From Pyrodictium occultum (GTDB lineage: Archaea > Thermoproteota > Thermoprotei_A > Sulfolobales > Pyrodictiaceae): a stretch of 32,000 nucleotides of DNA. The position numbers and the translations under genes were made by a program. The notes below the pieces were generated by a model. The model was not told the DNA's origin and did no database searches. It was given only the letters and a program-made list of their open reading frames with translations. Shown one piece after another: positions 3,672 to 32,000 of this stretch. How positions within the stretch are numbered: position 1 is the stretch's first letter; every line of letters begins with the position of its first letter. Where the stretch lies: positions 60,001 to 92,000 of the forward strand of contig NZ_LNTB01000002.1 in assembly GCF_001462395.1 (NCBI RefSeq), read 5' to 3'.

Positions 3672-3752
3672 GGTCTTGCCCCTCTATGGGCGCACCTCTT
3701 CCTAGCGCCGTCGCGTCTGGTAGGGGGTGCGGGTTTTTGGGGTGTATGGCTG

Positions 3753-15545: not shown

Positions 15546-16498
15546 ATCTTCGGTACCTCTACCTCCTCGAGCACCCTAGACACTATGGCTGAGGCATCCG
15601 CCCCCTCGGCCTCCCGCTCAGGCCTAAGGACTATCCTGTGGCGCAGCGTGTAGGGTGCCAGCTGCTTCACGTGGTCGGGGATCACGTAGTCCATGCCCTC
15701 TAGGAGGGCCAGCGCCCTGCTACCCTTGTAGAGCCATATCGACGCCCTCGGGGAGGGCCCTAGGAGCACCTCCTCCCTCCTCCTCACAGCGTTTACTACA
15801 TCGACTATGTACTTCCTCACCGAGGGGGCTACGTGCACGCCGCGGGCGGCCCTCCTCAGCTCGGCCACGTCCCGGGGCTCCAGGACCTTCCCCACTCTAG
15901 CCTCGTCTATCTCGTCTATCCTCGACAGCAGCTCCACCTCCATCTTTGGGTCGGGGTAGCTCGAGGCGTAGGAGTAGGCGAAGCGGTCCCTCAGCACGGG
16001 GGTTAAGGGGTAGGTCCCCTCAGAGCCGACGGGCATCTGGGAGGCCACGACCATGAAGGGCTCCGGCAGCCTGAGCGTCTCGCCCTCGATCGTCACCTGC
16101 CCCTCCTGCATCGCCTCCAGCAGCGCGCTCTGCGTCCTTGGGGGTGCCCGGCTGAGCTCGTCGATGAACAGGACGTTTGCGAAGATGGGGCCCTTCCGGA
16201 GCACCCACTCTCCTCTCCGGAGGTCGTAGAAGTAGGTGCCAAGTATGTCCGATGGCAGGAGGTCGGGCGTCATCTGGACTCTTCTAAACACGCCCCCTAT
16301 CACCTGGGCGAAGAGCTTTGCCGTCGTCGTCTTCCCGACCCCTGGAGGCCCCTCTATCAGCACGTGGCCCCCGCTGACCAGGGCGACCGCCAGGAGCCTA
16401 AGGAGGTCCTCGTAGCCCAGTATGTACCTCCTAAGCTCCTCGATGGCCTCGGCCAGCTTCGCGGCCGCGCTGGGCTGCATGACGCATCTCCTCTGCAA
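15542..16498 (-). CDS. MoxR-family AAA+ ATPase
   Basis: Walker A LIEGPPGVGKTT. Walker B and downstream region VLFIDELSRAPPRTQSALLEAMQEGQVTIEG. Size is ~318 aa. The start may be the internal MQPSAAAK. Confidence 0.9.
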   Translation of the reverse strand: MQRRCVMQPSAAAKLAEAIEELRRYILGYEDLLRLLAVALVSGGHVLIEGPPGVGKTTTAKLFAQVIGGVFRRVQMTPDLLPSDILGTYFYDLRRGEWVLRKGPIFANVLFIDELSRAPPRTQSALLEAMQEGQVTIEGETLRLPEPFMVVASQMPVGSEGTYPLTPVLRDRFAYSYASSYPDPKMEVELLSRIDEIDEARVGKVLEPRDVAELRRAARGVHVAPSVRKYIVDVVNAVRRREEVLLGPSPRASIWLYKGSRALALLEGMDYVIPDHVKQLAPYTLRHRIVLRPEREAEGADASAIVSRVLEEVEVPKI

Positions 16499-17447
16499 GC
16501 CTCTTCAGCGTATCCGGGTCCCAGCCGGGGTGGAGCGCCAGGAGTCTTTCAACCTCGCTCTCGGGGCCGGCGCTCCTCCCCCTCCGGCGGGCCGCCCTGC
16601 AGAGCCTCCTGCCCGCCTGGTAGGCTGCCAGGCCCAGAGCCGCCGCCAGGGGGTAGCGGAGCGAGGTCTGGAGGGCCGCTGCCGCAGCGCCTGCCAGCAG
16701 CCTCCTCGCGGCCGTGTAGAGGCCTGGGCTCCACTTGTCCGCGACTATATAGGCCCTCCTCCCCCCGGCCAGGAGCCTCGCGAGCTCCAGGTTGTCCCCC
16801 AGCCCCAGCATGGAGTTTATGAAGACGCTTGAGTCCGCTACCAGGTAGAGCCTCCCCCGCCCCAGCCGCGCCTCGAGGACCGTGCAGAAGGGGCCGTGGG
16901 GCTCCCCGGGGTCGTGGCGGCCGTTCATGTTGGCGTCTATGTAGCTGAATGGCGTGGAGTAGCCTATACACCTCCCCTCCGCGGCCTCGATGAACGTGCC
17001 GTAGTTTAGGTAGACTCTCAGCTCTCTGCCCCCCACCGCGACCCTGGCGAGCGGCAGGTACTGGGAGCGGTGCATGAAGAGGGGGTCTGCCAGCAGCGAG
17101 CCGTTAAGCCTCACCCTCAGCCCCATGAGGGCCAGCAGCGTGTTCGCCGTGCCGAAGTCGTCGGCTACGACCAGCACCCCGCCCCTCTCCACGAAGGCTT
17201 TGAGTGCTCTAGCCTCCTGGGCTGTGAAGGGCCGGCTGGGGCCTATGACGAGGACCAGGCTGTTCCCGGGGAGGCTCCCCGCGTCCATGGCGGCGACGGG
17301 CCTGGCCCCCAGCAGGGCCGCCAGCCTGCTCATGCCGTTCCAGAAGGGGTTGTCTAGGGCGAAGTCGTCGGTCGAGGGCACCAGGGCTATGATCAGCAGT
17401 AGCAGCGCCAGCGAGAGGGCCAGCCCCGCCGCGGCAGCCCTCCTCAC
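16431..17447 (-). CDS. DUF4350-like membrane-anchored protein
   Basis: N-terminal TM, then NSLVLVIGPSRPFTAQEARALKAFVERGGVLVVADDFGTANTLL. This motif is typical of the DUF4350 (GldG-like) proteins that accompany MoxR/DUF58. Confidence 0.55.
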   Translation of the reverse strand: MRRAAAAGLALSLALLLLIIALVPSTDDFALDNPFWNGMSRLAALLGARPVAAMDAGSLPGNSLVLVIGPSRPFTAQEARALKAFVERGGVLVVADDFGTANTLLALMGLRVRLNGSLLADPLFMHRSQYLPLARVAVGGRELRVYLNYGTFIEAAEGRCIGYSTPFSYIDANMNGRHDPGEPHGPFCTVLEARLGRGRLYLVADSSVFINSMLGLGDNLELARLLAGGRRAYIVADKWSPGLYTAARRLLAGAAAAALQTSLRYPLAAALGLAAYQAGRRLCRAARRRGRSAGPESEVERLLALHPGWDPDTLKRLAEEMRHAAQRGREAGRGHRGA

Positions 17448-19273: not shown

Positions 19274-19515
19274 CGCCCGAGCACCTCGGCCACCCTGAAC
19301 CCCACGGCTATGGTGAAGGCTGCGAGGAGCGCGGCGTGGAGCCAGTCCCTACCCCTCCTCGCAGGCCTGAGCACAGCCTTGACCACGGTGTACTCCAGCG
19401 TGTACATCGCTATGTATGCGTCCAGCCTCTCCTCCCCCAGGGCCCAGAGCGTGGACACGGTTAGGGCCACCATGATGGCGAGCAGTGTGTTGGCTAGGCG
19501 GCTCCTATCCACCAT
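19270..19515 (-). CDS. Small two-TM membrane protein, unknown function
   Basis: 81 aa with two hydrophobic helices. 4-nt overlap with the downstream gene start and a 6-nt gap to the upstream gene. Confidence 0.5.
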   Translation of the reverse strand: MVDRSRLANTLLAIMVALTVSTLWALGEERLDAYIAMYTLEYTVVKAVLRPARRGRDWLHAALLAAFTIAVGFRVAEVLGR

Positions 19516-19521
19516 GAGGCT

Positions 19522-20232
19522 CTACCCCTCGGGCCTCCCGACGACTATCCTCCTGGCCCGGGGCCCGGCCCTCCGGTCGGCCTCCAGCAGGGCGCTCCCC
19601 CATAGCAGGGCTGCGGCGGAGGCGGCCACCACCCCGTATATGCTCCCCACGGTGTCCTCGAGGCTCGCCGGAGCCGCCACGCGCTCCCCGTGGACCTCGA
19701 CCACCAGCCTGTCCCCCTGGTCGACGCAGTCCAGCCAGTCGGCTAGGCCTAGGAGGTCTGTGAGCAGGTACCCCACCGCCGCGCACGGCTCCGTGAAGCC
19801 CTCCACCATGCTCCCCGAGACGGGCGAGCGGAGGACCAGGACCGGCCTCCCCCCGCAAACCGTTATCGGCGTGGCCGGGGGCCCGCCGGGGCCGGGGCAG
19901 CCGGCCGCCCCGACGTAGATGTAGACCGTGCCGCCGCTGCTCCGGTACAGGCTCGGCCCCCGGGCCCCGAGGGCCTCCAGGAGCCCGGCTATGTTCGAGA
20001 ACGCGTTCTCGAGGAGCAGGAGGGCCTCCCTCACCCCGGTGCAGGCCTCGGGGGTGAGGTACATGGATGCGCCCACCACCGCCAGGCCCAGCCAGAGGGC
20101 CGTGAGGGGCCCGGGGCCTATGAGCAGGTAGGTGGCCGCCGCGAGCACCGCCGCCGAGACTGCTACGGCTAGCCCAGCTGCCTGGTAGGCGGCCATCGCC
20201 GGGCCTCCCTGCCCCACCGGGGCCCGCGGCAC
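19522..20232 (-). CDS. Membrane protein with a Cys-containing soluble domain, unknown function (first gene of the long minus-strand string)
   Basis: 236 aa from the GTG at 20232. An ATG at 20196 (MAAYQAAGLAV..) is an equally plausible start. Two N-terminal TMs, then a domain with five Cys. Confidence 0.5.
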   Translation of the reverse strand: MPRAPVGQGGPAMAAYQAAGLAVAVSAAVLAAATYLLIGPGPLTALWLGLAVVGASMYLTPEACTGVREALLLLENAFSNIAGLLEALGARGPSLYRSSGGTVYIYVGAAGCPGPGGPPATPITVCGGRPVLVLRSPVSGSMVEGFTEPCAAVGYLLTDLLGLADWLDCVDQGDRLVVEVHGERVAAPASLEDTVGSIYGVVAASAAALLWGSALLEADRRAGPRARRIVVGRPEG

Positions 20233-20238
20233 CTAGCA

Positions 20239-20248
20239 TCTTAAACCC
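20239..20248. promoter_or_regulatory. Candidate shared TATA box (TCTTAAACCC) in the divergent spacer
   Basis: The only AT-rich element between the minus-strand string (start 20232/20196) and the GT2 gene (start 20340). Confidence 0.3.
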
Positions 20249-20339
20249 TCGCATACCGTAGGTGCTAGCCGCGCGGCCTGGAGGCTCCAGGCTCCCTCTC
20301 CCGGGGCCGCGGGGGCTTGCAGGGGTCTTGAGGGCCGGC

Positions 20340-21473
20340 ATGAGGGGCCTGACGGTACTGATACCCGTCCTCGACGAGGCCGAGGCTATAGGCAGGGTTA
20401 TAGACGAGGTCGTCTCGGCGGGCGTCCCCAGGGAGAACATCCTGGTCGTGGACGGGGGCAGCAGGGACGGGACGGTCGAGATAGCCAGGGCCCGCGGGGT
20501 GAGGGTGGTGAGGCAGGAGGGCCGCGGGAAGGCTATGGCTGTCAAGACGGGGCTGCGCCACGTCTCAACCCCCTACGTCCTCGTCATGGACGGGGACTAC
20601 ACGTACCCCGCGGAGTATATACCCGTCCTCTACCGGGTCCTGGTCGAGGGCGGCTACGACCTAGTGATAGGCGCCCGCGTGCCCGAGCGGGGCGCGCAGA
20701 GCCTCGTCTACCGGGTGGGGAACGCGCTGCTCACAAGGCTCTTCAACCTCCTCTTCGGCACCAGGCTTAGCGACGTGCTGAGCGGCATGTACGCGGCCCG
20801 GACCAGGAGGCTCCGGGAGCTGGGCTTCGAGATGCAGGGGTTCAGCATAGAGTCCGAGATAGCCGCCCACGTGGCCTCCACCACGGGGAGGATAGCGGAG
20901 GTCCCCATCAGGTACAGGAGGAGGCTTGGGAGGAAGAAGCTCCGGGTCCTCCACGGCCTGTCCATAGCCAGGGACATGGTCCGGCTCGCGTGGAGGTACA
21001 ACCCCGCCTTCCTCATATTCCTGCTAGGCGGCCTCCTCCTCGCCCCGGGGCTCGGGCTGGGGGGCTGGGTCGCCTACATGTACCTGGCCCACGGGGTCAA
21101 GCACTACGTGAAGGGGCTGGCAGCGGTGGTGCTCTCCTCCACGGGCCTCGCCAGCCTCCTCCTCGCAGTGATGGCCCTCTACCTTAAGAGGGCCGAGATG
21201 AGGCTCCAGAGGAGGCTGGAGGAGCTCGCCGAGAGGCTCAACCGCCTACTGGAAGAGCGCGTCGATGAGGGGGGAGAGGGGCCTGGCGAGCCTCCCAGCC
21301 CTCTCCCCGAGCAGCCCCCGGGCCAGGTCGCGGAGGTCGCGGCGCTCCAGGACCCCCAGCCGGCCGTAGGCGGGGTAGCTGAGCGCGAGGAGGGCGGCGC
21401 CCGCGAGCCAGTGGAGCCCCAGGATCCTGGCCAGGGCAGCCAGCGCCGCGGGCACGGCGGCAGCCCCGCCTAG
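20340..21473 (+). CDS. GT2 glycosyltransferase, dolichyl-phosphate hexose synthase (Dpm1/AglD-like) with C-terminal TM helices
   Basis: MRGLTVLIPVLDEAEAIGRVIDEV..ILVVDGGSRDGTVEIA..VLVMDGDYTYP (D-x-D), then two TMs. Start placed at the ATG at 20340, not the GTG at 20262. The last ~75 codons are low-complexity and antisense to the flippase gene. Confidence 0.8.
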   Translation: MRGLTVLIPVLDEAEAIGRVIDEVVSAGVPRENILVVDGGSRDGTVEIARARGVRVVRQEGRGKAMAVKTGLRHVSTPYVLVMDGDYTYPAEYIPVLYRVLVEGGYDLVIGARVPERGAQSLVYRVGNALLTRLFNLLFGTRLSDVLSGMYAARTRRLRELGFEMQGFSIESEIAAHVASTTGRIAEVPIRYRRRLGRKKLRVLHGLSIARDMVRLAWRYNPAFLIFLLGGLLLAPGLGLGGWVAYMYLAHGVKHYVKGLAAVVLSSTGLASLLLAVMALYLKRAEMRLQRRLEELAERLNRLLEERVDEGGEGPGEPPSPLPEQPPGQVAEVAALQDPQPAVGGVAEREEGGAREPVEPQDPGQGSQRRGHGGSPA

Positions 21474-22745
21474 CAGCCTCCAGTCGAGCCGCAGGCCCAG
21501 GCCCCCGGCCACGGCCGCGCTGTAGGCCAGCCCGGCGTAGGAGCCCAGGGCGTACGCCACGGCCGCCCCGAGGCCGTGGAGCCTGGGGACGAGGACGAGG
21601 TAGAGGAGCAGCCTGGGCAGGCTGGCGGCGAGGCCCTGGGCGAGCACCAGGCGGTACCTCCCATGGGCGTAGGCCAGGCTCGACACGGTCGCGTTGACCG
21701 CGTCCGGCAGGAAGCCCGTGAGGAGGACGGCCAGCTCAGCCGAGGCGGAGGCGTAGCCCCTGCCCAGGAGGCCCAGGACCAGCCCGGGGTAGGCGGCGGC
21801 GTAGAACGCCACGGGGGCGGTGACGGCCAGGCTCACCCTCAGGGCCCTCCAGGCGGCCCCACCCCTCCCCCCGGCCATGCCGCTGAGCACCGGGAGGAGG
21901 AGGCTCAGCACGCTCATACCGAGCCCCGTAGCGAGGCCCGCGGCGGCGAAGGCCACGTAGTAGTAGCCCGTCTCCACGGCCCCGCTGCTCCCGTAGACGA
22001 GTAGCACGCCCAGCCACTGGCCGGCGAGGACCACGACGCCCGGGGCCCAGGAGGCCAGGCCGGCGGCCAGGACCCCCGCCACCGCGGCCGCGTCCAGGCC
22101 GATCCAGGCCCCGTAGCGCCTAGCCAGGTAGGGGAGCCCCACCAGGAGCACCGCGGCGGGGAGGAGGGCGTAGCCCGCCACGACCCCGGGGAGCCCGGCC
22201 CCGAGGGCCACGAGCCCCGCGCCCAGGGCCAGCTTGGAGAGGTTGCCCAGCAGCCTGGAGGCGAGGACCAGGTCGCTGCGGAGGAGGGCGAGCAGGGCAG
22301 CCTCCACCACCCCGGCCACGCCCAGCGCCGCCAGGGCGCCGGAGAGGAGGAGCATCCGGGGCCCGAGGCCCCCCAGCCCCCGGCCCGCGAGCCCCAGGAG
22401 GGCCAGGGCGGAGCCGGCGGCCAGGTAGACCAGGGCCATAGCGTAGAGCGTCGACCAGAAGACCCTCCGGAGGCAGGCCTCGTCCCCAGCCCCCAGGCAC
22501 CTGCCCAGCCGGTGCTGGAGCCCGGCGCCCGCACCGAGCCCCGCAGCCCCCGAGACGAGGCCGGCGAGCCCAACCACGGCCGAGGCCCTGCCCAGGAGCC
22601 CGGGGCCGGCGAGCCTCGAGACCACGAGCCAGTAGAGGAAGCCGCCGAGAGCGTTAACCAGCCTAGAGGCGTAGAGCCAAAGCCCCCCGCGCACAAGCCT
22701 GGAGAGGCTCAAGCCCGCCCAGAACCCCGCAGGAGAGAAGGGCAC
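21246..22745 (-). CDS. Polysaccharide/oligosaccharide flippase (Wzx-like, MOP superfamily)
   Basis: 499 aa with a GTG start and roughly 12-14 hydrophobic segments, G/A/L-rich. Call rests on architecture and glycosylation context. An AT-rich box lies 19-26 nt upstream of the start, consistent with a leaderless transcript. Confidence 0.7.
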   Translation of the reverse strand: MPFSPAGFWAGLSLSRLVRGGLWLYASRLVNALGGFLYWLVVSRLAGPGLLGRASAVVGLAGLVSGAAGLGAGAGLQHRLGRCLGAGDEACLRRVFWSTLYAMALVYLAAGSALALLGLAGRGLGGLGPRMLLLSGALAALGVAGVVEAALLALLRSDLVLASRLLGNLSKLALGAGLVALGAGLPGVVAGYALLPAAVLLVGLPYLARRYGAWIGLDAAAVAGVLAAGLASWAPGVVVLAGQWLGVLLVYGSSGAVETGYYYVAFAAAGLATGLGMSVLSLLLPVLSGMAGGRGGAAWRALRVSLAVTAPVAFYAAAYPGLVLGLLGRGYASASAELAVLLTGFLPDAVNATVSSLAYAHGRYRLVLAQGLAASLPRLLLYLVLVPRLHGLGAAVAYALGSYAGLAYSAAVAGGLGLRLDWRLLGGAAAVPAALAALARILGLHWLAGAALLALSYPAYGRLGVLERRDLRDLARGLLGERAGRLARPLSPLIDALFQ

Positions 22746-22763
22746 CAGGCCCCGGGAGGGAGG

Positions 22764-22773
22764 CTTTTAACCC
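22764..22773. promoter_or_regulatory. Candidate TATA box (CTTTTAACCC) in the divergent spacer
   Basis: The only AT-rich element between the flippase start (22745) and the 22817 gene. Confidence 0.35.
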
Positions 22774-22816
22774 CCGCCGCCCCACGCCGCCCGCACAGGC
22801 CGGAGGGGCCCCGGGA

Positions 22817-23248
22817 GTGCCGCTACTCGCGGAGCTGGCGAGCCGCCTAGACCAGGGCCCCGGTAGCCGGGCCCTCGAGAAGGCGAGGGAAGCGGTAGCC
22901 AGGATACTCCTCCCAGAGAGGATCACGGGGCCCCTCATCCAGAAGTACATCCGGAAAGCAATACTCAACCACACCTGGCACGCCCTACCCCCCGAGACCA
23001 GGGCGCTCATGCTCCTCGCCCGCCGCCTCCCGAGAATAAAATCCCCCACCCTAGCATCCATCCTGAAGCAGGCCTTCCTGAGAATAGAGCTCGCAACCAC
23101 CCGGGGCCAAGCCCTCCTCTACGGAGCACTCATAGCCATGAAGAAGGCGGCCCAGGACCTCCACAGGCTACTCCACAACGCCAGCAAGCTACTCATACTA
23201 GGACTATCCTACCTCAACAACCCGCCGATATACAGGATATACGGCTAG
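22817..23248 (+). CDS. Hypothetical helical protein, no family recognised
   Basis: 143-aa ORF with a GTG start and plausible, non-low-complexity composition (..ITGPLIQKYIRKAILNHTWHALPPETRALMLLARRLP..). Confidence 0.45.
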   Translation: MPLLAELASRLDQGPGSRALEKAREAVARILLPERITGPLIQKYIRKAILNHTWHALPPETRALMLLARRLPRIKSPTLASILKQAFLRIELATTRGQALLYGALIAMKKAAQDLHRLLHNASKLLILGLSYLNNPPIYRIYG

Positions 23249-23300
23249 AGCCCCCCGGGAGCCGTGAAGGCCCACAGCCCAGAGACGGCAGGCACCGGGG

Positions 23301-23431
23301 CAGCGGACACAGCCCTGCTAGAAGCCGCCGAGCCCCACACAGACGAGCATAACACGGCAGCACGGACTACGACATGCAGGAAACAGTGCCAGACACGCCA
23401 GCAGTGGACACAGCCCTGCTAGAAGCCGCCG
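23301..23431 (+). repeat. 30-bp direct repeat (29/30 identical) with 101-bp offset, bracketing the GT2 start codon
   Basis: cag[c/t]ggacacagccctgctagaagccgccg at 23301-23330 and 23402-23431. The core 26 bp is perfect. Confidence 0.9.
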
Positions 23432-24528
23432 GGGCAGCCCTCGCAGCCATACACTTCGGGGTGCCCCTAGCCTACTACTTGTACCTCAGGAGGGCCTGGC
23501 TCCGCAGGCCCTGGGGGCTGAGGAGGGACCCCGGGTACACGCCCAGGGTGGTAGTGGTAGTGCCGACCTACAACGAGGCAGACCTCATAGAGCGTAAGCT
23601 CGACGACATCTACAGGCAGGACTACCCCCGCGAAAAGCTCGAAGTAGTGGTAGTGGACTCAGCCAGCACCGACGGCACCCCGGAGAAGGCTAGAAGGTGG
23701 GCCTCCAAGCACCCAGACCTAAAGGTCAGGCTCGTAGAGGAGCCCGCCAGGAGAGGCAAGGCGCACGCGCTAAACACAGCGCTAAAACACATCCCGCCAG
23801 ACGCCGAGGTCGTAATCCTAACCGACGCAGACTCGTTCTGGCCCCAGAGAGACACGGTAAGGAGGGCCGTAGCCTACCTGGCAGACCCCACCGTGGGCGC
23901 CGTCTCCTGCCTCAAGAAGCCGGCGGGCCAGGGCCCCGGGGGCGTCGAGGAGGCCTACAGGAGCCTCTACAACCAGGTAAGGCTCGCAGAGAGCAAAGCC
24001 CACTCAACACCAATATTCCACGGGGAGCTAGCAGCCTACAGGAAGAGCCTCCTAGAAGAGATAGGAGGATTCCCGGAAGACCTCGGCGCAGACGACAGCC
24101 ACACAGCAACCCTAATAGCGCTCAAAGGCCGCAGGGCGATAACACCCGAAGACGTATGGTGCACAGAGCTAGTGCCGAGAAAAGGCTACACCAGGTGGAG
24201 GATCCGCAGAGCGCAACACCTAACCCAACACTTCCAGAAAATCCTGAAAACAAGCCACAAAACACCAAGCCAGCTCAAGAGGATACTAGCAGTAGAGGCA
24301 TACCTACACCTAGCCAACCCATGGCTACTACCAGCCGCCGCCGCACTACTAGCACTAGCCGCCGCCCACAAAAGCCCCTCAGCCATCATACTACTAGCCC
24401 TAGCCGCCGCGCTACTAGCGTACAAGCCGTACAGGACGTGGATAACAACACAACTATACCTCACAGCAGCAATGATAAGAAACCTACACACAAAGGAGAT
24501 AACATGGGAAAAGCAGACCAAACAGTAA
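23374..24528 (+). CDS. GT2 family glycosyltransferase with C-terminal TM helices
   Basis: VVVVPTYNEADLIERKLDDIYRQDYP..VVVVDSASTDGT..VILTDADSFW (D-x-D), followed by an RW-containing segment (GYTRWRIRRAQH) and hydrophobic C-terminal helices. Confidence 0.85.
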   Translation: MQETVPDTPAVDTALLEAAGAALAAIHFGVPLAYYLYLRRAWLRRPWGLRRDPGYTPRVVVVVPTYNEADLIERKLDDIYRQDYPREKLEVVVVDSASTDGTPEKARRWASKHPDLKVRLVEEPARRGKAHALNTALKHIPPDAEVVILTDADSFWPQRDTVRRAVAYLADPTVGAVSCLKKPAGQGPGGVEEAYRSLYNQVRLAESKAHSTPIFHGELAAYRKSLLEEIGGFPEDLGADDSHTATLIALKGRRAITPEDVWCTELVPRKGYTRWRIRRAQHLTQHFQKILKTSHKTPSQLKRILAVEAYLHLANPWLLPAAAALLALAAAHKSPSAIILLALAAALLAYKPYRTWITTQLYLTAAMIRNLHTKEITWEKQTKQ

Positions 24529-24548
24529 AAGGGCGGGTTCCAGAACCC

Positions 24549-25619
24549 ATGAAGATACTCTACATAACTCCTAGATACTATCCGCATATAGGTGGTGTGG
24601 AGTATGTAGTGAAGTCTGTCGCTGAGAGGCTGGTTAGATGGGGGCATAAAGTTGCTGTGTTCTCTGGAGAACCCAATATAGAGATTCCTAAGGAAGATAA
24701 TGTCAATAATGTACATGTAATTAGGTGGCCTGTATGGAGCCCCTCTAATGCTTATCATGTACCGAGAAAAAAGACCTTGTTTGAAAGAATGTTGGAAAAT
24801 CTGCTGGATGATATAGATGTACTTCATATTCACAACATACATAGTGTTTTAACATATTATGCATGGAAAATTTGGAGACGAAGAAAAAACTGCAAGTTGA
24901 TTTTAACGCCTTATTATCATGGAACAGGTCATACAGTAATTAGGAGAATGTTGTGGATCGGATGGAGAAGAATAATTAGAAGGATAATAAGAGATGCATA
25001 TAGGGTTCATACAGTATCGCAATTAGAAGCTTCATTGATATCAAGAGATTTCCAGGTGCCGGCTGTACCGATCGAAAACGGGGTTGAAGAGAAAGTTAAA
25101 AGGCTCAATTGGAAACCTAGCAATTATGTTCTTTATGCAGGTAGGATTGAGAAATATAAAAATATTCATAGGCTAGCTAAAATAATATTGATGCTTAATA
25201 AGAAATATGGATATGATCTTAGCTTTATGGTTATTGGTGAAGGCCCATATAGAGAAAAGCTTAAAAAATATTTAGATAATATAGGAATCAATTATGTGAT
25301 CTCACACTTTAAACCATATGAGGAATACCTCAAAATACTTTCGCAAGCATACTTCTTTGGATTGCTATCTGAAAAGGAATCTTATCCTCAGAGTGTGAAT
25401 GAGGCCAATGCCATTGGAGTACCGGTGGTTATAGCAAAACCTTGGGGAGCAAATTTTAATAAAAGAAGGAGAACATTAATAATTGATCCAGAAAGCAATA
25501 GTGAGGTTTTAGCCATGAAAATAAGCGAATTCTTAAAACAAGTAGCTAATGAGCCTAGATCTAATGTCCCTACATGGGATGAGATCGCTAAAATATACAT
25601 TCAAAAACTGTATAGCTAG
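24549..25619 (+). CDS. GT4 family glycosyltransferase
   Basis: The true start is MKILYITPRYYPHIGGVEYVV at 24549. The upstream 852 nt of track ORF 23697-25619 is an alternative frame of the GT2 gene. The E-x7-E motif is EKESYPQSVNEA. Confidence 0.85.
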   Translation: MKILYITPRYYPHIGGVEYVVKSVAERLVRWGHKVAVFSGEPNIEIPKEDNVNNVHVIRWPVWSPSNAYHVPRKKTLFERMLENLLDDIDVLHIHNIHSVLTYYAWKIWRRRKNCKLILTPYYHGTGHTVIRRMLWIGWRRIIRRIIRDAYRVHTVSQLEASLISRDFQVPAVPIENGVEEKVKRLNWKPSNYVLYAGRIEKYKNIHRLAKIILMLNKKYGYDLSFMVIGEGPYREKLKKYLDNIGINYVISHFKPYEEYLKILSQAYFFGLLSEKESYPQSVNEANAIGVPVVIAKPWGANFNKRRRTLIIDPESNSEVLAMKISEFLKQVANEPRSNVPTWDEIAKIYIQKLYS

Positions 25620-25623
25620 GTGA
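25619..25623 (+). promoter_or_regulatory. GGTGA Shine-Dalgarno-like site
   Basis: ggtga lies 7 nt upstream of the ATG at 25631, a typical crenarchaeal internal-operon ribosome site. Confidence 0.4.
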
Positions 25624-25630
25624 CAATTTT

Positions 25631-26578
25631 ATGAGGGGAAAAGCATTAATCACTGGTGGTGCGGGCTTCATCGGTAGCCACTTAGTTGATAGACTCCTCA
25701 AAGAGGGGTGGGCTGTAAGAGTAGTCGATAATTTTAGCTCGGGCAGGTATAGTAATCTAGCTCATCATAGAGACAATCCTATGTTGGAAATAATTAGAGG
25801 AGACCTCAAGGATGCTGAGACAAGTATGAGGGTCGTAGAGGGGGTTGACGTCGTTTTCCACTATGCTGCCAATCCTGAAGTTCGCGTGAGCACTACAAAC
25901 CCCGATATACATTTCAATGAGAATGTAGTGGCCACTTTTAACCTCCTAGAAGCTATGAGGAAGAAAGATATTAGGAAGCTCGTCTTTGCATCCTCTAGCA
26001 GCGTCTATGGTGAGCCTGAGAAAATACCGGTTAGTGAAAACGCACCGATAAAACCAGTATCCGTTTATGGGGCTAGTAAAGCTGCATGCGAGTCGCTAAT
26101 ACATGCATATAGTAAGCTATATGGGATAAAATCCGTTGTTCTTAGATACGCAAATGTCGTAGGACCTAGGCTTAGACACGGCATCATATACGATATAATT
26201 CAGAAACTAAGGAAAAATCCGAGAAGGCTAGAAGTCTTAGGCGATGGAACACAGGTTAGGAGCTACATCTATATCACAGATGCCATCGAGGCCACAATGC
26301 TTACCTTCAAAAACATGAATGATTATTTTGAAGTATACAATATAGGAAACGAGGACTGGATCACGGTAGACGAGGTAGTAAATGTAATTATAAAAGTTAT
26401 GGGGCTAAGTAATGTAGAGATAATCCATAAGCCTATAGCCCATGGAGTAGGATGGCCAGGTGATGTGAAAAGAATAGCGCTTAGTATTGAGAAGCTGAAA
26501 AGCTTAGGATTTAAACCAAGAATGAATAGTATAGAATCTGTGAAGGAGGCGGCCAAGCATGTCGCAAATGAACCCTAA
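25631..26578 (+). CDS. NAD-dependent epimerase/dehydratase (UDP-sugar 4-epimerase-like SDR), intact
   Basis: ITGGAGFIGSHL Rossmann motif, ASSSSVYG, YGASK (YxxxK), LRYANVVGPR. 315 aa, uninterrupted. Confidence 0.9.
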   Translation: MRGKALITGGAGFIGSHLVDRLLKEGWAVRVVDNFSSGRYSNLAHHRDNPMLEIIRGDLKDAETSMRVVEGVDVVFHYAANPEVRVSTTNPDIHFNENVVATFNLLEAMRKKDIRKLVFASSSSVYGEPEKIPVSENAPIKPVSVYGASKAACESLIHAYSKLYGIKSVVLRYANVVGPRLRHGIIYDIIQKLRKNPRRLEVLGDGTQVRSYIYITDAIEATMLTFKNMNDYFEVYNIGNEDWITVDEVVNVIIKVMGLSNVEIIHKPIAHGVGWPGDVKRIALSIEKLKSLGFKPRMNSIESVKEAAKHVANEP

Positions 26579-27254
26579 AGTATCAGCCATAAACTCTATT
26601 CTTAGCCGGTTAAGACTGGCTCGTGACTCAAAGCTTTTAGACATAGGTTGTGGCGACGGTAGTTTAACTATCCTTATTGCTAATAAGCTTAAAGTAAGTG
26701 AAATATATTGTATCGATGTAGACGAAAACGCATTAAGTATAGCTAATAAAAAGGGTATAATTACTTTCAAGCTTGACATAAGCAGAGATGATCTTCCTTT
26801 TCCAGAAAATACTTTTGATCTATGCCTTATGCTTGACGTGATAGAACATCTTGAAAACCCAGATCATGCACTTAGAGAAGCTTATAGAGTCCTAAAAAGA
26901 GGGGGATACTTACTGATCACAACTCCGAACATGGCTTCATGGTATAATCGTTTACTACTACTTCTCGGAAAACCTATCCTAGGCATTGACTTATCTAAAG
27001 AGTTTAGGTACAGGTACCCTCTTGGTGTAACACAGGTTATATCTGGACACCTAAGGCTTTACACCCTAGATGCACTTAGGAAGATGCTCTTTTATCACGG
27101 ATTTAGAGTAAAGTATGAAGCCGGATATCCACAGGTCTTCTCAAAAACTCAGGTAAAGGGCTTCATACGCCTGGTTAGGCTTCTAGATGCATCTATCGCG
27201 CGCATCAGCAAGACCTGGGCGGCTAACCTATTAGTGTTAGCTGTTAAGAGCTGA
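26559..27254 (+). CDS. Class I SAM-dependent methyltransferase
   Basis: LLDIGCGDGSLT (motif I), LDVIEHLENPDHALREAYRVLKRGGYLLITTPN. 20-nt overlap with the epimerase gene. Confidence 0.85.
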   Translation: MSQMNPKVSAINSILSRLRLARDSKLLDIGCGDGSLTILIANKLKVSEIYCIDVDENALSIANKKGIITFKLDISRDDLPFPENTFDLCLMLDVIEHLENPDHALREAYRVLKRGGYLLITTPNMASWYNRLLLLLGKPILGIDLSKEFRYRYPLGVTQVISGHLRLYTLDALRKMLFYHGFRVKYEAGYPQVFSKTQVKGFIRLVRLLDASIARISKTWAANLLVLAVKS

Positions 27255-27255
27255 C

Positions 27256-29013
27256 ATGTCGGTATTATCACTACTCCAAACACCACTAGTTCTATACACA
27301 GTTATCCTGACCATTACTTGGTTCTCCCTATTGGTGATTTCAGAGATCGCCCCCATAAAACCTAGTCTCAGCCCGAAAACTAGTAACAGACTAATGCATT
27401 CAATTTTTATAATTTACATTTTTATAACAATATTTTTCATCAAATTAAATTTAGTCTTGTATCCATATTTACATGCGATTATGATCGCACTCATTCTCTT
27501 ACTCATACTAGGATCAATGCAGCATAATCCAAAGTCTTTGCTCTTGGTAGCCCTCTCTACAGCTATAACGCCCATAATAGTCATGACATCTACAAAGCAC
27601 CCGCTTCCACTAGGTGATGACGCACGCTTCATTGGGTTCGCCCAAGCCATCTATAGAGATGGGAGATGGATACCGTTCAAATACCAGGAAAACACGTACT
27701 ATCAGCCATTCCATCTAATACCTTTCCTCGAATATATTCTAGCAGTATTGCTAGGCCTCAACTTAAAAAACATTGAAGCATACTATCTCCTCCTAAAATT
27801 TAGCCTCTGGCTCACTTATATGATCTCCACTTACCTAGTTATAAAGAACTTAAGTAATGATTACTCTAAGTCATTAGTAGGTATACTGCTTCTATCTATA
27901 ACTCCCCCAATCGCTCTAACCCAGGTAGTTCACCAAGCTTATGCGATAGTGCTTTTCCTGATAACAGCCTCAGTATTAGTGAAGGAAATAAGGGTTAGGC
28001 AGAGCTTAAACACACTGTTCCTAGTTATAATAGTATTATGGATTGCTGGAATAATTGCTCATGCAACCTATACTGTGATGTTTCTAGCATTCATTTTACC
28101 CCTCTTCTTAATAGAAAGGGAGGGGGTTTCTAAGAAAAACATTGCATTGCTCTCAGCAACACTAGTATCAATTAGCATCATTTATTGGACATACCTATAC
28201 ATGCTTGACGAGATTGTACGATCAACAATAAGTGCTACGACAAGACTCATAGATTTACTAATAGGGAGAACACCGTTCTCCCCCTTCCATGGAACAGCAA
28301 AACCCTGGTACACGTCATCTACATCAACATTTTTCATAGCCTGGGCCTTTGTTCCCTCCATAGTAGCCTCATACATACTCCTTCTCCTTTCAAAAATAAT
28401 ATTTAAACATTGGAAATACTCTTGGAGTTTCATGGAACTGTTAGGTTTTCTAGGATTAAGCGGAACAGCCGTAAACTATATCTTACGCGCTCTCTCCACT
28501 TTTGGCGGCAGGTACTTCTACTGGCTATACATACTAATGATCCCGCTGGCAACTATGGTAGTAAAGAAAGTATCAAGAAGCCCACTCAGTCTATTACCCT
28601 CCATAATCCTGATCTCCACGGCTGCGTTTTACGGCATACAGGATCCAACAATGGCTGCTAACACTTATGGAAACTATATTGGCTGGGCAGACAGAACCAG
28701 CTGGCATATAGCCCTAGAGCTACAGCCATACCTTGGCCACAGAGCATCCAAATGGATCGATCCAAGACTGTCAGCACCACTAAGCTCCACAGCTCCGCTA
28801 CCAGCAGGTAATGGGAGAATCAACTATCAGCAAAAGGTAGCAATAATAGGTGTTGATAAGGTAGGATTGAAAGGCGCCTCAAAGGACCCACGTAATGTAG
28901 ACTGGTTTATAAGAAATTTCAACGTAGAACCACATAACATCATGAATAAGCTAGACGAATTTAGTGTAATTCTAAACATCGACAAATATATCGGGATATG
29001 GGGAAACCCTTGA
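27256..29013 (+). CDS. Polytopic membrane protein (candidate glycan polymerase or GT-C-like enzyme; function unknown)
   Basis: 585 aa with a dozen or more hydrophobic segments by eye. An early loop reads HPLPLGDDARFIGFAQAIYRDGRW. The C-terminal ~130 aa are hydrophilic. The gene starts 1 nt after the methyltransferase stop. Confidence 0.75.
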   Translation: MSVLSLLQTPLVLYTVILTITWFSLLVISEIAPIKPSLSPKTSNRLMHSIFIIYIFITIFFIKLNLVLYPYLHAIMIALILLLILGSMQHNPKSLLLVALSTAITPIIVMTSTKHPLPLGDDARFIGFAQAIYRDGRWIPFKYQENTYYQPFHLIPFLEYILAVLLGLNLKNIEAYYLLLKFSLWLTYMISTYLVIKNLSNDYSKSLVGILLLSITPPIALTQVVHQAYAIVLFLITASVLVKEIRVRQSLNTLFLVIIVLWIAGIIAHATYTVMFLAFILPLFLIEREGVSKKNIALLSATLVSISIIYWTYLYMLDEIVRSTISATTRLIDLLIGRTPFSPFHGTAKPWYTSSTSTFFIAWAFVPSIVASYILLLLSKIIFKHWKYSWSFMELLGFLGLSGTAVNYILRALSTFGGRYFYWLYILMIPLATMVVKKVSRSPLSLLPSIILISTAAFYGIQDPTMAANTYGNYIGWADRTSWHIALELQPYLGHRASKWIDPRLSAPLSSTAPLPAGNGRINYQQKVAIIGVDKVGLKGASKDPRNVDWFIRNFNVEPHNIMNKLDEFSVILNIDKYIGIWGNP

Positions 29014-30122
29014 AGATTCTTTTCCAAACAATAGGTGTTTTAATACAATATAATTGGGCTTTACCATACTATTTGAGTAGAGAGGACGTTAAAATTACTC
29101 TCATAACGAATATGTTTTCCTACTTTATGGGCGGGTATTATTACCACTTTAAAGCACTTAATAAGCTAACACCGCTTTTCACGGGCTTCGGGTTACCTTA
29201 TACCCAGCAATACGACAAAAATATTACCAGTAACATTCCAGTAGGTAGGCTTAGTAGAGGATCTGATGTAATCCATCTTAATGATTCAAAAAATCCTCTT
29301 ACGAAAAGACTGTTAAATGTAGATAAACCTAAGCTTTTCTTCCTTCATGGATCGCTAGATATAATAAATCTAGCTAATCCGCCTAAAGAATTAGAGGAAA
29401 TAAGATCTAAAGTTGATGCGTTCGTGGTTGCAAGCAATCATGCCGCCTATACTGTTAGGAGAGTGCTCGGGTTCACGCCGATAGTTATACATCACGGCAT
29501 AGATACTATGATATTCAACCCCTTCAATATCACTAAGCAGAGAGCGAGAGAAAAACTGTCAATACCATTGAATAAAAGGGTTATATTATAGGTCGCCCGG
29601 ATAAGCCCTGAGAAAAACCTCCAGATGGCCATCAAAGCCCTCCCACATGTGGTTAGTGAGGATAAAGATGTTCTACTGGTAGTTAAAGGGAGAACAGTAG
29701 ATAGAAAGTATTTGGGTTTCATTCTCAAGCTGATTAAGAAGCTAAATGTGAGTAAATATGTAAGATTTGATTTCAAATGGAGCCCCAACGTGACTATGGT
29801 CTATTATTATTATCGGGCTGCAGATGTTTATGTACATACATCCTTGTCCGAAGCTTTTGGCTCCCTAACACTCTTAGAAGCTATGGCTTCAGGGACGCCA
29901 GTAGTAGCAAATAACGCTTCAAGCATCCCTGAAGCCGTTGGTAATGCTGGCCTACTAGTAAACTCAGAGGAAGAACTAGCTGAAAAGATTCTAGAAATAC
30001 TGCATGATGATAGCCTAAGACGCAAACTATCTAGAGAAGGCTTTAGAAGAGTTATCGAAAATTTTTCGTTAAAAATAACTGCTAAGAAATATCTACAACT
30101 ATATAGAAAATTGATGGGTTAA
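28998..30122 (+). pseudogene. GT4 glycosyltransferase interrupted by a single in-frame TAG (29589-29591)
   Basis: Track ORFs 28998-29591 and 29625-30122 are in the same frame. Reading through gives ..LNKRVIL*VARISPEKNLQMAIKALP.., the conserved ilyvGRl.peKg junction between the two GT-B halves. The downstream part carries the E-x7-E motif SEAFGSLTLLEAMA. Confidence 0.75.
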
Positions 30123-30140
30123 AAAGGTGTAAGCAAGGAC

Positions 30141-30653
30141 GTGGTGCTAGTTAGCATAGTAATATTAAACTACAATTGTAGTTTAATATTACATTGTGAA
30201 GAGTACTTGAACAGATTGCTTGGAAGTTGCTCTATATTAACTACTAGAGGACATGCTTTTGCTGTTCTTATACGGAGGGAGACAGTTATAGATTGGAAAC
30301 CACGACATGATCTTTCAGCACTTGAGACCTTCAGCCTTGCACAACATATATTATCTAAGGGATACCTATGGATAGAGCTTTTTAAACCCTGTTGTATTCA
30401 TCTAAAGGAGCTAAAATATGGAGCAGGTATAAGCCGTTATTTTAGACAAGGTCTTTGGGAAGGTGCAGGGGCTAGACTTGTAGGAATCAAGAAAAGACAT
30501 ATGCTTGAGGAAGTTGTTGCTAGATTATTAGGAGGGGTCTTAACCGCTTTAATTACTCATGATGTAAAACATTTAGCTAATAATACAGCTTTAAGACTAG
30601 GGCTACTTCTAGGTTATCTTGTACCTTATAAATTCAGAGTCTGGCGTAGATGA
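30141..30653 (+). pseudogene. GT2 glycosyltransferase remnant lacking the central D-x-D catalytic core
   Basis: It starts VVLVSIVILNYN (GT2 N-terminal motif) and jumps within about 25 residues to late-GT2-like segments (GHAFAVLIRRETV, DLSALETFSLAQHILSKGY..CCIHL). About 100 residues of a normal GT2 are missing. Confidence 0.5.
30159..30192. repeat. Perfect 34-bp palindrome
   Basis: gtaatattaaactacaa|ttgtagtttaatattac. All 17 base pairs verified position by position. Centred on caattg. Confidence 0.95.
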
Positions 30654-30735
30654 AATGTTTTGTGTCACAGCGTTGTTCGGAAATAAAAATTCCAGTTTAT
30701 TAAACTAAGACAGCGTATTTAGTGAAAAGTCCAAG

Positions 30736-31941
30736 TTGAAAATACTTATTATCTCAGAGCCCTTTTGGCCTAAGGGTAGCGGAGGTCCTCTAGCCACTTA
30801 TCTTATAACTAGGATTCTAGCAAGGAATAGAGACTTTAATATAACTGTTGTTATTGGCACTGAGAAATCGGCTAAGATAAGAAACGTTGAATTCATTGTG
30901 GATCCTATGCTTAGAGCTTCAAATAAGGTAAAGTTGTTACTAAGACTTACTAATCCTGTGGTAAGGCATAAATATGAGAAGCTTATAAAAAAATTCGATA
31001 TATTGTATATTCCATCATACTCCCCCTGTGGTTATCCTCTAATACCTATTGCTAAGAGGCTTGGGAAGAAGGTGGTTGTTCACCTCCACGACTACCAGCC
31101 CTTCTCCTACAACTCCGTCATACCGGCAGGCCGCCACGGTAGTGTTTTGAATGGTGTCAGCTACGAGGCCCGGTACGAGGTTTACGAGCATGGCAGCGTT
31201 GGGAGGGCTGTCCTGGGATCCCTGGCGACCCCTCTCATAGGTCTTTACAGGCTGTGGGTTAGACAGGCGGATGCAGTCGTATGCGTCTCAAGGAGGCAGG
31301 CGGAAATAGTGGCTGAGATAGCGCCAGAGCTTAGGGGCAGGATCAGGGTCGTATACAACCCCCTCCCAGACGTCCCCCCAACGGAGAAGAGGCTTGGAGA
31401 CCCCGCCTTCCTATATCTAGGCGGTGACAGCTACATTAAGGGGTTCCATGTTCTCCTGGGCGCTTCCCGGAAAATCCTGGAGCATTATCCCAATGTAGAA
31501 TTCCTGCTAGCCGGGAGATTCAGGGATTCAAGCAGGCTCCTCGTCGAGAAGCTGAACAGAAGGTTTAATGAAGCATATAGGGTGCTAGGCTACCTGAAGC
31601 ATGAAGATATTGTAAGGCTTCACGGAGAGAGCTACGCCCTCCTCTTCCCATCAGTAGTCGAGGAGCCCTCGCCATACGCTGTCCTCGAATCCATGCTGGC
31701 CGGGACGATACCAATAGCTTCGAGGGTGGGCGGGGTCCCCGAGATAGTTGAGGGTACACCCGCCGAGAGAATGCTCTTCACGCCAGGCGATGCAGGCGAG
31801 CTAGTGGACCGTATCGAACACGTTTTATCCTTCTCCAAGGAGCAGCTAGTCGATATGGGGTTTAAGCTGAGGGAGTCTGTCACGAGGAAGTTTAATAACG
31901 AAAGAATTAAGCGAGAGCTGATGAAAGTGTTTACTATATAA
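30736..31941 (+). CDS. GT4 family glycosyltransferase, compositionally mosaic
   Basis: TTG start. MKILIISEPFWPKGSGGPLATY.., HLHD, FLYLGGDSYIKG, and the E-x7-E motif EEPSPYAVLESM. 401 aa. A TTTATTAAA box at 30696-30704 lies ~35 nt upstream. Confidence 0.85.
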   Translation: MKILIISEPFWPKGSGGPLATYLITRILARNRDFNITVVIGTEKSAKIRNVEFIVDPMLRASNKVKLLLRLTNPVVRHKYEKLIKKFDILYIPSYSPCGYPLIPIAKRLGKKVVVHLHDYQPFSYNSVIPAGRHGSVLNGVSYEARYEVYEHGSVGRAVLGSLATPLIGLYRLWVRQADAVVCVSRRQAEIVAEIAPELRGRIRVVYNPLPDVPPTEKRLGDPAFLYLGGDSYIKGFHVLLGASRKILEHYPNVEFLLAGRFRDSSRLLVEKLNRRFNEAYRVLGYLKHEDIVRLHGESYALLFPSVVEEPSPYAVLESMLAGTIPIASRVGGVPEIVEGTPAERMLFTPGDAGELVDRIEHVLSFSKEQLVDMGFKLRESVTRKFNNERIKRELMKVFTI

Positions 31942-32000
31942 ATGTGTGGGATAATGAGGCCGGCAGACCAGACTAATACCTATAATACTGACGGCAACTA

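Follow-up and report, generated by a model that had tools for sequence, protein, structure and literature searches.

A low-G+C glycan-gene cassette in Pyrodictium occultum, probably exchanged between conserved glycosyltransferase genes

We asked how Pyrodictium occultum, a hyperthermophilic archaeon with a GC-rich genome, comes to carry a block of AT-rich glycan genes. The block spans about 6.5 kb of a stretch of 32,000 nucleotides (positions 60,001 to 92,000 of contig NZ_LNTB01000002.1, RefSeq assembly GCF_001462395.1), which we call the window and whose own positions are used throughout. Three proteins of the window are 100% identical to NCBI entries for P. occultum on a 120-kb contig. A preliminary description of the window had proposed that a foreign glycan cassette was recombined in between conserved flanking glycosylation genes. 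Comparisons with a near-identical strain and with a sister lineage, together with the mosaic structure of the flanking genes, agree with that proposal. In our view the AT-rich block is probably the core of a flexible glycan island of the replacement type, a core that is exchanged through homologous recombination.

Composition and gene content of the block

G+C content was measured in 500-bp windows, with positions 3500-24000 as the host reference (n = 41) and 24540-31040 as the block (n = 13). The host stretch has a mean G+C of 0.679 +/- 0.042 and a minimum of 0.59, whereas the block has a mean of 0.389 +/- 0.029 and a maximum of 0.436, so that the two distributions do not overlap (Mann-Whitney p = 7e-8). 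G+C at third codon positions (GC3) is 0.73 to 0.95 in host genes and 0.23 to 0.41 in the seven open reading frames (ORFs) of the island, in which G+C at first and second positions (GC1 and GC2) is also lower. Codon choice follows the same division: AAA makes up 63% of Lys codons in the island and 9% in host genes, AGA 58% and 6% of Arg codons, and TTA 22% and 0% of Leu codons. The same is true of the encoded proteins, with a GARP (Gly, Ala, Arg, Pro) fraction of 0.218 in the island against 0.395 in host genes, and a FYMINK (Phe, Tyr, Met, Ile, Asn, Lys) fraction of 0.320 against 0.134. These analyses bear out the sharp low-GC block for which sliding-window G+C and codon usage had been proposed as checks. 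Island GC3, GARP, and FYMINK values match those of orthologues in hosts of ~39% G+C and are the same as those of two such contigs, L001 and L011, the latter from a Sulfolobales metagenome-assembled genome (MAG). Because the island's composition is indistinguishable from that of low-GC orthologues, we see no amelioration and take its proteins to have had a long history at low G+C; codon and amino acid usage without a visible shift toward host values is what the description of the island as un-ameliorated had implied.

The boundaries of the block fall within intact genes. On the left, the maximum-likelihood change point lies at ~24442, inside the last 90 bp of a GT2 glycosyltransferase gene (23374-24528), and is preceded by a ramp in which GC3 declines from 0.79 in the first half of that gene to 0.585 in the second. 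The switch from 0.68 to 0.39 is thus real, but it extends beyond the ~20 bp separating the GT2 stop from the following start, to which it had first been assigned. On the right, the change point at ~31056, close to the end of 31070 given previously, falls at about codon 107 of the last GT4 ORF (30736-31941), whose GC3 is 0.30 in codons 1 to 105 and 0.65 thereafter. Both of these boundary genes, which we call the arms, are compositionally intermediate (GC3 0.65 to 0.69, with 0.69 for the GT2 overall). G+C is back down to 0.39 in the final 150 bases of the window (31850-32000), and AT-rich DNA therefore very probably runs on beyond it. The features of the cassette and its arms are as follows; L012 is the near-identical strain compared below.

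23374-24528, + strand: membrane GT2, left homology arm (Pfam Glycos_transf_2, 1.6e-28)
24240-24730, + strand: left transition zone, in which homology to L012 decays and which contains the change point at ~24442
24549-25619, + strand: GT4 glycosyltransferase, first cassette gene (Pfam Glyco_transf_4 and Glycos_transf_1; GC3 0.32)
25631-26578, + strand: NAD-dependent sugar-nucleotide epimerase/dehydratase, GalE-like (Pfam Epimerase, 2.8e-60; GC3 0.41)
26559-27254, + strand: class I S-adenosylmethionine (SAM)-dependent methyltransferase (Pfam Methyltransf_11, 3e-23)
27256-29013, + strand: 585-aa polytopic membrane protein with a predicted GT-C fold (no Pfam match; structure model)
28998-30122, + strand: GT4, nonsense-interrupted (two halves matching Pfam Glyco_transf_4 and Glycos_transf_1)
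30141-30653, + strand: GT2 remnant, 170-aa ORF (no Pfam match; ~130 catalytic-core residues deleted internally relative to the full-length GT2 of contig L006)
30736-31941, + strand: GT4 of 401 codons, right homology arm (Pfam)

Pfam matches and homology agree with the seven genes listed in the preliminary description (GT4, epimerase, SAM methyltransferase, 585-aa polytopic protein, GT4, GT2 remnant, and GT4) and with its count of two broken genes among them. The opening ~60 codons of the first GT4 are still part of the shared flank, and this protein scores just 41 bits against NCBIfam Agl16, for which the cut-off is 575. The epimerase likewise falls under the NCBIfam GalE cut-off (192 against 262 bits); its start is preceded by a GGTGA motif, the ribosome site pointed out earlier, and its stop is overlapped by 20 nt by the start of the methyltransferase. 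The first of the broken genes, the GT4 at 28998-30122, contains one in-frame TAG (29589-29591) at a codon that specifies Trp in homologues (VIL*VARI in the window, VILWVGRI in L006 and L003), a change of TGG to TAG, and by its reading frame is inactivated by this one nonsense codon. In the GT2 remnant, the N-terminal VSIVILNYN motif runs straight into the distal part of the protein, and residues 35 to 170 are 55 to 57% identical to the C-terminal part of full-length GT2s in L006 and L007. The point at which resemblance to the GT2 N-terminus stops coincides exactly with a perfect palindrome of 34 bp (30159-30192; GTAATATTAAACTACAA/TTGTAGTTTAATATTAC), which may be a scar that snap-back or template switching left at the deletion. 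Public annotation differs from this list at two genes. In GenBank the right-arm GT4 is represented by no more than its GC-rich C-terminal part of 289 aa (KSW10767.1, "hypothetical protein"), and in RefSeq the 585-aa protein is given an internal start, which shortens it to 510 aa; gene callers evidently stumble over the AT-rich parts of the locus.

Intergenic gaps range from -20 to +20 nt from the GT2 stop to 30141, with 82 nt before the last GT4, so the cassette reads as one operon continuing from the native GT2, and packing at -20 to +82 nt leaves no room for mobility genes. A Pfam scan of the window proteins found no integrase or transposase domains, a search of the window found no tRNA, and no meaningful direct repeat was found flanking the island, all of which accords with the earlier remark on their absence. 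These results bear on whether the block could be an integrated mobile element, that is, a plasmid, a virus, or an integrative element that entered through site-specific or illegitimate recombination. Such an element would fit the abrupt compositional boundary, and defense- or toxin-antitoxin-type candidates and gene fragments upstream of the GT2 in two related contigs (L012 and L013, below) show that non-homologous insertions do occur locally. However, besides lacking those hallmarks, the block is coding without gaps and carries glycan genes only, both of its boundaries lie inside intact genes colinear with their orthologues, and no relatives of the cassette were found among 2.9 million viral contigs. 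We consider a mobile element very improbable. If cassettes are instead swapped by homologous recombination, the absence of integrase, tRNA, and direct repeats would be explained.

Variation between the conserved arms

The comparison that carries most of the argument is with L012, contig 1 of the Logan assembly of run DRR667394, which is independent of the window assembly. Window positions 19292-23550 are 99.4% identical to L012 overall, after which L012 has a 5.7-kb insertion and then the GT2 gene. Identity within the GT2 is 95 to 100% over 23465-24245 and 67 to 95% to 24545; beyond this it is 58 to 78% to ~24730, and then no homology is recognizable. With the sister-lineage contigs L013 and L014 included, DNA homology to the window stops at ~24730-24766. 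Downstream, L012 encodes a GT4 with 42% identity to that of the window, along with a GT1, a Methyltransf_21, and a membrane protein of 576 aa that bears no relation to the window's GT-C family; this set has a G+C of 0.34 to 0.42. A remnant of the right-arm GT4 comes next, and then further AT-rich glycan genes. The island slot is thus in the same position in both P. occultum strains, sharing the flank at 19292-23550 and the GT2 arm, and its cassettes are largely non-homologous and equivalent in function (surface glycan). Since two strains with only 4 single-nucleotide polymorphisms (SNPs) between them in the first 3.5 kb of the matched flank carry non-homologous cassettes, the content of the slot has been replaced and not merely eroded. 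The comparison among related strains that the preliminary description had called for therefore returned the same GT2 followed by entirely different AT-rich glycan genes. It had also allowed that all relatives might carry the same AT-rich block as an ancient, lineage-typical feature; the low-GC slot is indeed lineage-typical, yet its content is strain specific.

L012 also bears on the possibility of an assembly chimera or contamination, in which Pyrodictium sequence was fused with a low-GC contig from a different organism. In a draft genome such as this one, a 29-point change in composition within ~100 bp might be taken for a misjoin. The independent L012 assembly, however, repeats the transition at the 3' end of the GT2 and shares the first ~290 bp of AT-rich sequence at 58 to 95% identity, while the right step falls within an ORF of 401 codons that is intact and full-length colinear with its L013 and L014 orthologues. 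The GT2 is also found directly ahead of a GT4 and an epimerase in unrelated genomes. A chimera is, in our estimation, barely credible.

A second lineage shows the same arrangement. The GT2 and right-arm GT4 of L013 (GCA_053490995.1) are both 72% identical to those of the window at the amino acid level, and the right-arm GT4 of L014, the only gene of that contig compared as an arm, is 71% identical. Starting at the right-arm GT4, L013 and L014 share 6.9 kb at 91.6% identity, and between the arms L013 has one distant homologue of the GT-C protein where L014 has six or more other genes. Because the slot between the same two genes differs both between the window and L012 and between L013 and L014, we conclude that it is hypervariable in two lineages.

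We then looked at the arms themselves. Codon differences between the window and L012 number 15 of 258 in the center of the GT2 (23465-24240; 9 synonymous, 6 non-synonymous), 20 of 35 over 24240-24345 (5 synonymous, 15 non-synonymous), and 11 of 60 over 24345-24526 (9 synonymous, 2 non-synonymous). The rise in substitutions toward the cassette is clear, and a synonymous excess is present in part of the GT2 only. Over 24012-24310 the window GT2 is 82 to 93% identical to L013, compared with 55 to 75% for ten more distant orthologues, and at 24252-24311 it is nearer to L013 (0.85) than to its own sister strain L012 (0.73). In the right-arm GT4, a three-sequence test (window, L013, and L014) found that the most similar pair changes along the gene, from the window and L014 (30936-31236) to L013 and L014 (31236-31336), then to the window and L013 (31436-31636), and from 31736 again to L013 and L014; heterogeneity is significant (chi2 = 116, permutation p <= 5e-4). 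Read at the level of sequence, both arms are recombination mosaics, the right-arm GT4 a three-way one. A simpler structure for that gene, a two-piece chimera of foreign N terminus and native C terminus, was considered and rejected: 115 homologues gave no clear N/C discordance, and the lower identity in the N-terminal than in the C-terminal part (0.43 vs 0.54) is a family-wide trend. We dropped it in favor of a multi-tract mosaic because the three-sequence test supports the latter. The N-terminal part of the right-arm GT4 is GC-rich in L014 (0.60 to 0.66) and AT-rich in the window and L013, and the AT-rich 5' third is therefore not intrinsic to the gene.

Taken together, L012, the L013/L014 pair, and the mosaic arms agree with a glycan cassette recombined between conserved flanking glycosylation genes. 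The boundaries of the exchange, however, are better placed in crossover zones inside the flank genes (~24240-24730 and ~31056) than in an intergenic gap, and the flanking genes belong to the same cluster as the cassette. In the mechanism that we propose, a fixed chromosomal slot would hold surface-glycan genes, the GT2 on its left and the GT4 on its right, both of the same pathway, would serve as homology arms, and whole cassettes would be exchanged by homologous recombination with crossovers in those two zones. A swapped cassette would presumably be expressed from the promoter of the resident GT2 and would then be functional at once. Selection from viruses or other surface-recognizing agents presumably keeps the diversity of cassettes.

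Source of the cassette and its low G+C

To which gene pool does the cassette belong? In L011 (G+C 0.39), a GT2, GT4, epimerase, methyltransferase, and GT-C protein occur in this order and are followed by GT4s that include an orthologue of the last GT4, with identities to the window genes of 55, 50, 68, 63, 45, and 49%, respectively. A similar gene order is found in L009 (a Metallosphaera MAG), L005, L008 (Vulcanisaeta), and many hot-spring contigs, and GT2-GT4-epimerase is a frequent trio among hot-spring metagenome contigs. Since the arm GT2 and the last GT4 belong to this same conserved cluster, the compositional boundary cuts through a functional unit. The first GT4 is 50 to 51% identical to the syntenic GT4s of L011, L005, and L009 and only 42% identical to the GT4s in the same position in L012, L013, and L014; the epimerase is 65 to 69% identical to those of L011, L005, and L009, and the methyltransferase 63% identical to its syntenic counterpart in L011. 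For every cassette gene, the closest homologues are in low-GC archaea and not in GC-rich relatives.

The preliminary description had suggested a low-GC organism, possibly another hyperthermophilic archaeon, as donor and protein homology searches as the means of finding its lineage. Both homologue distribution and composition fit low-GC thermophilic archaea, yet no actual donor was found. The nearest match is that of L001, with 86% identity to the epimerase by tblastn (84% over the full codon alignment), and a large-database search with the GT-C protein, a Joint Genome Institute (JGI) metagenome scan with the epimerase (best match 79%), and two viral scans returned nothing nearer. Third-position identity between the window and L001 is only 0.54 to 0.59, and with synonymous sites near saturation a "recent" arrival of the cassette cannot be dated. 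We propose that the present cassette came from a low-GC pool of GT2-GT4-epimerase-methyltransferase-GT-C clusters widespread in thermophilic Thermoproteota, and the likeliest sequence of events would be entry into the Pyrodictiaceae gene pool by another route, followed by arm-mediated swaps among Pyrodictium strains.

Several observations weigh against this account of homologous replacement. No donor is at hand, the closest contig, L001, having 86% identity in the epimerase and 61% in the GT-C protein. The arms are just ~60 to 75% identical at the DNA level to distant low-GC lineages, which makes direct homologous recombination with a 39%-GC donor unlikely and requires at least one earlier step of entry by some different route. 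L013 has most of the right-arm G+C step, with the rise ~130 nt later (~31190 in window coordinates), and part of the step may therefore predate this swap. The right-arm GT4 is merely a remnant in L012, and this strain is represented by a Logan assembly of a sequencing run, DRR667394. With G+C falling again at 31850, the right end of the variable region lies at or past the edge of the window. The glycan product, its acceptor, and expression of the cassette are all things that we infer. Finally, of the five defining features of a replacement island, four were found; the fifth, an identical cassette in a divergent clonal frame, was not found with two strains of the species compared.

The alternative that addresses composition most directly is divergence in place, in which an old resident cluster had its AT-richness made or kept in situ with no foreign donor, either because a partner-less, strain-specific segment escapes GC-biased gene conversion or because AT-richness is selected, for example, for expression control. 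Low-G+C glycan clusters do recur across hosts, with G+C falling from 0.68 to 0.39 in P. occultum, from 0.70 to 0.35-0.40 in L012, from ~0.5-0.6 to 0.35-0.40 in L013, from 0.50-0.61 to 0.38-0.43 in Thermoproteus tenax, and from 0.46-0.51 to 0.34-0.38 in Vulcanisaeta. The graded GC3 of the arms (0.59 to 0.79) is as a gradient in recombination frequency would give, and the authors of the T. tenax genome saw no evidence of a single low-GC donor (PMC3189178). However, GC1, GC2, and amino acid usage are also of the low-GC type, which would require a very long history at low G+C, and neither the non-homologous cassettes of the near-identical window and L012 nor the low-GC affinities of the cassette genes are what divergence in place would predict. 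We regard it as improbable.

It is also conceivable, though doubtful, that the slot is exempt from whatever process drove the rest of P. occultum to a GC3 of ~0.9. One version would have a phylum-wide commons of cassettes that turn over faster than they ameliorate; in the other, hemizygous, partner-less DNA would escape GC-biased gene conversion, and the graded G+C of the arms would then be a direct read-out of recombination frequency. Glycan cassettes of the Thermoproteota have ~35 to 42% G+C whatever the composition of the host (~39% to 68%), and the unrelated cassettes of the near-identical window and L012 are among them. If an exemption is real, Pyrodictium would be an unusually sensitive natural system for weighing transfer against the rate of amelioration above 100°C.

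Glycan pathway, neighboring genes, and known counterparts

Searches of Pfam, NCBIfam, and PDB sequences at thresholds as permissive as E = 5 to 10 gave no match to the 585-aa membrane protein (27256-29013). An AlphaFold (AF2) model built on a 42-homologue alignment (pLDDT 81.9, pTM 0.85) has ~13 long helices, and a Foldseek search of the PDB with this model gave GT-C enzymes for all of the top twelve matches (STT3/OST, ArnT, AglB, DPY19, and AftA), at E-values of 1e-4 to 2e-2 and with modest TM-scores of 0.30 to 0.50. Because the best structural matches are all GT-C enzymes, we predict that this protein is a GT-C-fold glycosyltransferase of a small undescribed family. D121-D122 is invariant and G120 nearly so in the 42-sequence alignment, in a PLPLGDDARF motif that comes after four predicted helices, where the acidic motif of GT-C enzymes, which lies close to the N terminus in a loop outside the cytoplasm, would be expected after one. 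At E <= 1e-3, a search of 1.84 billion sequences gave 135 representatives of the family, and every relative comes from a thermophilic archaeon (Bathyarchaeia, Metallosphaera, Thermosphaera, Thermofilaceae, Sulfolobales, and Vulcanisaeta; 33 to 61% identity). A 529-aa membrane protein at 9018-10607, considered as a native GC-rich paralogue, proved unrelated (hhalign probability 1%). The Bathyarchaeia MAG JZ-1_201912_bins_83 has at least four copies of the family on four contigs (L002, L003, L004, and L007), each with different GT4 and GT2 neighbors, which could represent several glycan cassettes in one genome or a mixed-population bin. The small GT-C family would be the signature membrane enzyme of a gene cluster common to many thermophilic archaea.

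Three further features of the window touch on glycosylation.

3-3683, - strand: gene for an S-layer-like secreted giant glycoprotein, running past the window edge (>1223 aa, signal-like N terminus, 28 N-X-S/T sequons)
5300-5950, - strand: GC-rich epimerase pseudogene (tblastn with the island epimerase: two pieces in different frames, 48 to 50% identity)
20262-21473, + strand: native AglJ-like GT2 of the dolichyl-phosphate hexose synthase type (NCBIfam AglJ TIGR04182, 6.8e-62; GC3 0.89)

The AglJ-like GT2 scores 209 bits, under the 325-bit TIGR04182 cut-off, is 99.75% identical in L012, and is a possible supplier of a lipid-linked donor for the GT-C enzyme. The S-layer-like gene, into whose neighborhood the island had originally been placed, does exist and is compositionally native (GC3 0.79), but it lies 21 kb away and is not adjacent; its product is a likely glycan acceptor. 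No AglB oligosaccharyltransferase was found within the 32-kb window. From knowledge of the families, a pathway can be pictured in which the AglJ-like and arm GT2s would act on dolichyl phosphate and the epimerase would supply an epimerized nucleotide sugar. On the cytoplasmic side of the membrane, a lipid-linked oligosaccharide would be lengthened by GT4 enzymes, and the methyltransferase would place a methyl group on a sugar. On the outer side, the GT-C enzyme would transfer a further residue, with a dolichyl-phosphate sugar as its donor. Envelope glycoproteins, for instance the S-layer-like protein encoded 21 kb upstream, would carry the finished glycan. With one GT4 and one GT2 dead, the present glycan would be simpler than the cassette's original product.

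Other observations concern the surroundings of the locus. The AglJ-like ORF overlaps a convergent ORF for a 499-aa membrane protein (21246-22745, - strand) by 228 nt at their 3' ends. Since the sequence is 99.8% identical in L012, the overlap is not due to an error in local sequencing; the C-terminal tail of the AglJ-like ORF is of low complexity and may not be truly coding. The 499-aa protein was considered as a flippase and is not so called, having no family match. In the epimerase pseudogene, residues 86 to 133 are gone and the catalytic YGASK reads DGATK. Short 5' fragments of epimerase also lie upstream of the GT2 in L012 (7166-7287) and L013 (9174-9290), and pseudogene and fragments look like debris of earlier cassette turnover or of a native version.

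In L012 (4268-9971) and L013 (2277-9912), an inserted module separates a 5' fragment of the GT2 from the complete gene, which comes after it. This module carries a candidate antiviral system (PADLOC HEC-01A ATPase, 2e-54; HEC-01B/DUF4276, 2e-11) along with PIN and nucleotidyltransferase genes and, in L012, an AT-rich tetratricopeptide repeat (TPR) protein. The window is without it at ~23550 and retains a 42-nt duplicate of the GT2 5' end (23289-23330 and 23390-23431), consistent with loss by deletion between two GT2 5' repeats. The module is 85 to 93% identical between L012 (4313-7275) and L013 (4036-9281), where the adjacent GT2s are only ~75% identical, and in L013 it is GC-richer (0.59 to 0.61) than its surroundings, which suggests that it moved separately and more recently between the two lineages. 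A trio of DUF4350, MoxR AAA ATPase, and DUF58 genes lies near the glycan cluster in both the window (14259-17447, - strand) and L009 (1-2531), with MoxR 48% identical and the trio in the opposite relative orientation. Lastly, a GC-richer element of ~0.8 kb encoding small helix-turn-helix (HTH)-type proteins (weak HTH_23 and Sigma70_r4_2 matches) is repeated in AT-rich glycan regions of L012 (16455-17297), L014 (7374-8200 and 11444-12025), and L013 (17173-17753) at 67 to 82% identity and is absent from the window. Either a family of regulators or a small mobile element would fit.

In bacteria, O-antigen and capsule loci such as rfb between galF and gnd in Escherichia coli and Salmonella and cps between dexB and aliA in pneumococcus switch by recombination in conserved flanks, which enclose a low-GC cassette of glycosyltransferase, sugar-nucleotide, and polytopic-enzyme genes with frequent pseudogenes. 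The Pyrodictium locus resembles these in its low-GC glycan cassette with a polytopic membrane enzyme, its conserved flanks, and its pseudogenes. It differs in being archaeal, in that its flanks are pathway and not housekeeping genes, and in that its polytopic enzyme has a predicted GT-C fold and is not a Wzy polymerase or Wzx flippase, no Wzx, Wzy, or Wzz having been recognized. In Haloferax, AglS is a GT-C enzyme that acts outside the membrane. The S-layer glycosylation genes of the Haloferax agl clusters vary between close strains through lateral transfer and recombination (Shalev et al. 2018, PMC5867893), and the window shares with them clustered archaeal glycosylation genes, a candidate AglJ-type dolichyl-phosphate-hexose enzyme, and a predicted GT-C enzyme that would act outside the membrane. 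Unlike those clusters, the window has no AglB and an AglJ match below the NCBIfam cut-off.

Closest in kind are the replacement flexible genomic islands, in which substitution density rises in the bordering conserved genes (PMC4033161), among them GI1 of Haloquadratum walsbyi (PMC4535781). As in those islands, different gene sets of equivalent surface-glycan function occupy the same position, hallmarks such as integrase and tRNA are missing, substitutions rise at the borders, and exchange by homologous recombination is the inferred cause. Here, however, the host is a hyperthermophile of the Thermoproteota (~105°C), where those islands come from aquatic mesophiles and haloarchaea, the shift in composition is much greater (GC3 from ~0.9 to ~0.3), the homology arms themselves encode glycosyltransferases that belong to the conserved cluster, and no identical cassette was seen between divergent clonal frames among the strains compared. 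Within the phylum, the extended low-G+C region 3 of the crenarchaeon T. tenax Kra1 consists mainly of type I/II glycosyltransferase genes (Siebers et al. 2011, PMC3189178). It has a 52%-identical homologue of the right-arm GT4 beside a block of 0.38 to 0.43 G+C in a background of 0.50 to 0.61, a smaller contrast than in the window, and unlike the window it is known from a single genome without a strain comparison. Its content also differs, with many GT2s and Polysacc_synt flippase-like genes and no such GT-C protein in the stretch examined.

The P. occultum locus is thus probably of a known kind, a replacement glycan island, and is an unusually sharp example in a lineage where such an island had not been shown before. 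Because GC3 passes from ~0.9 to ~0.3 inside single intact genes, crossover zones are visible at near-nucleotide resolution, and the locus offers a natural test bed for whether AT-rich glycan loci reflect a donor signature, selection, or escape from biased conversion. With direct evidence from a strain pair, it would extend serotype-like cassette replacement from bacteria and haloarchaea to a crenarchaeon living at ~105°C. Pyrodictium strains that are alike by marker genes may in practice differ in their envelope glycans, which bears on virus susceptibility and on work with cannulae and S-layers.

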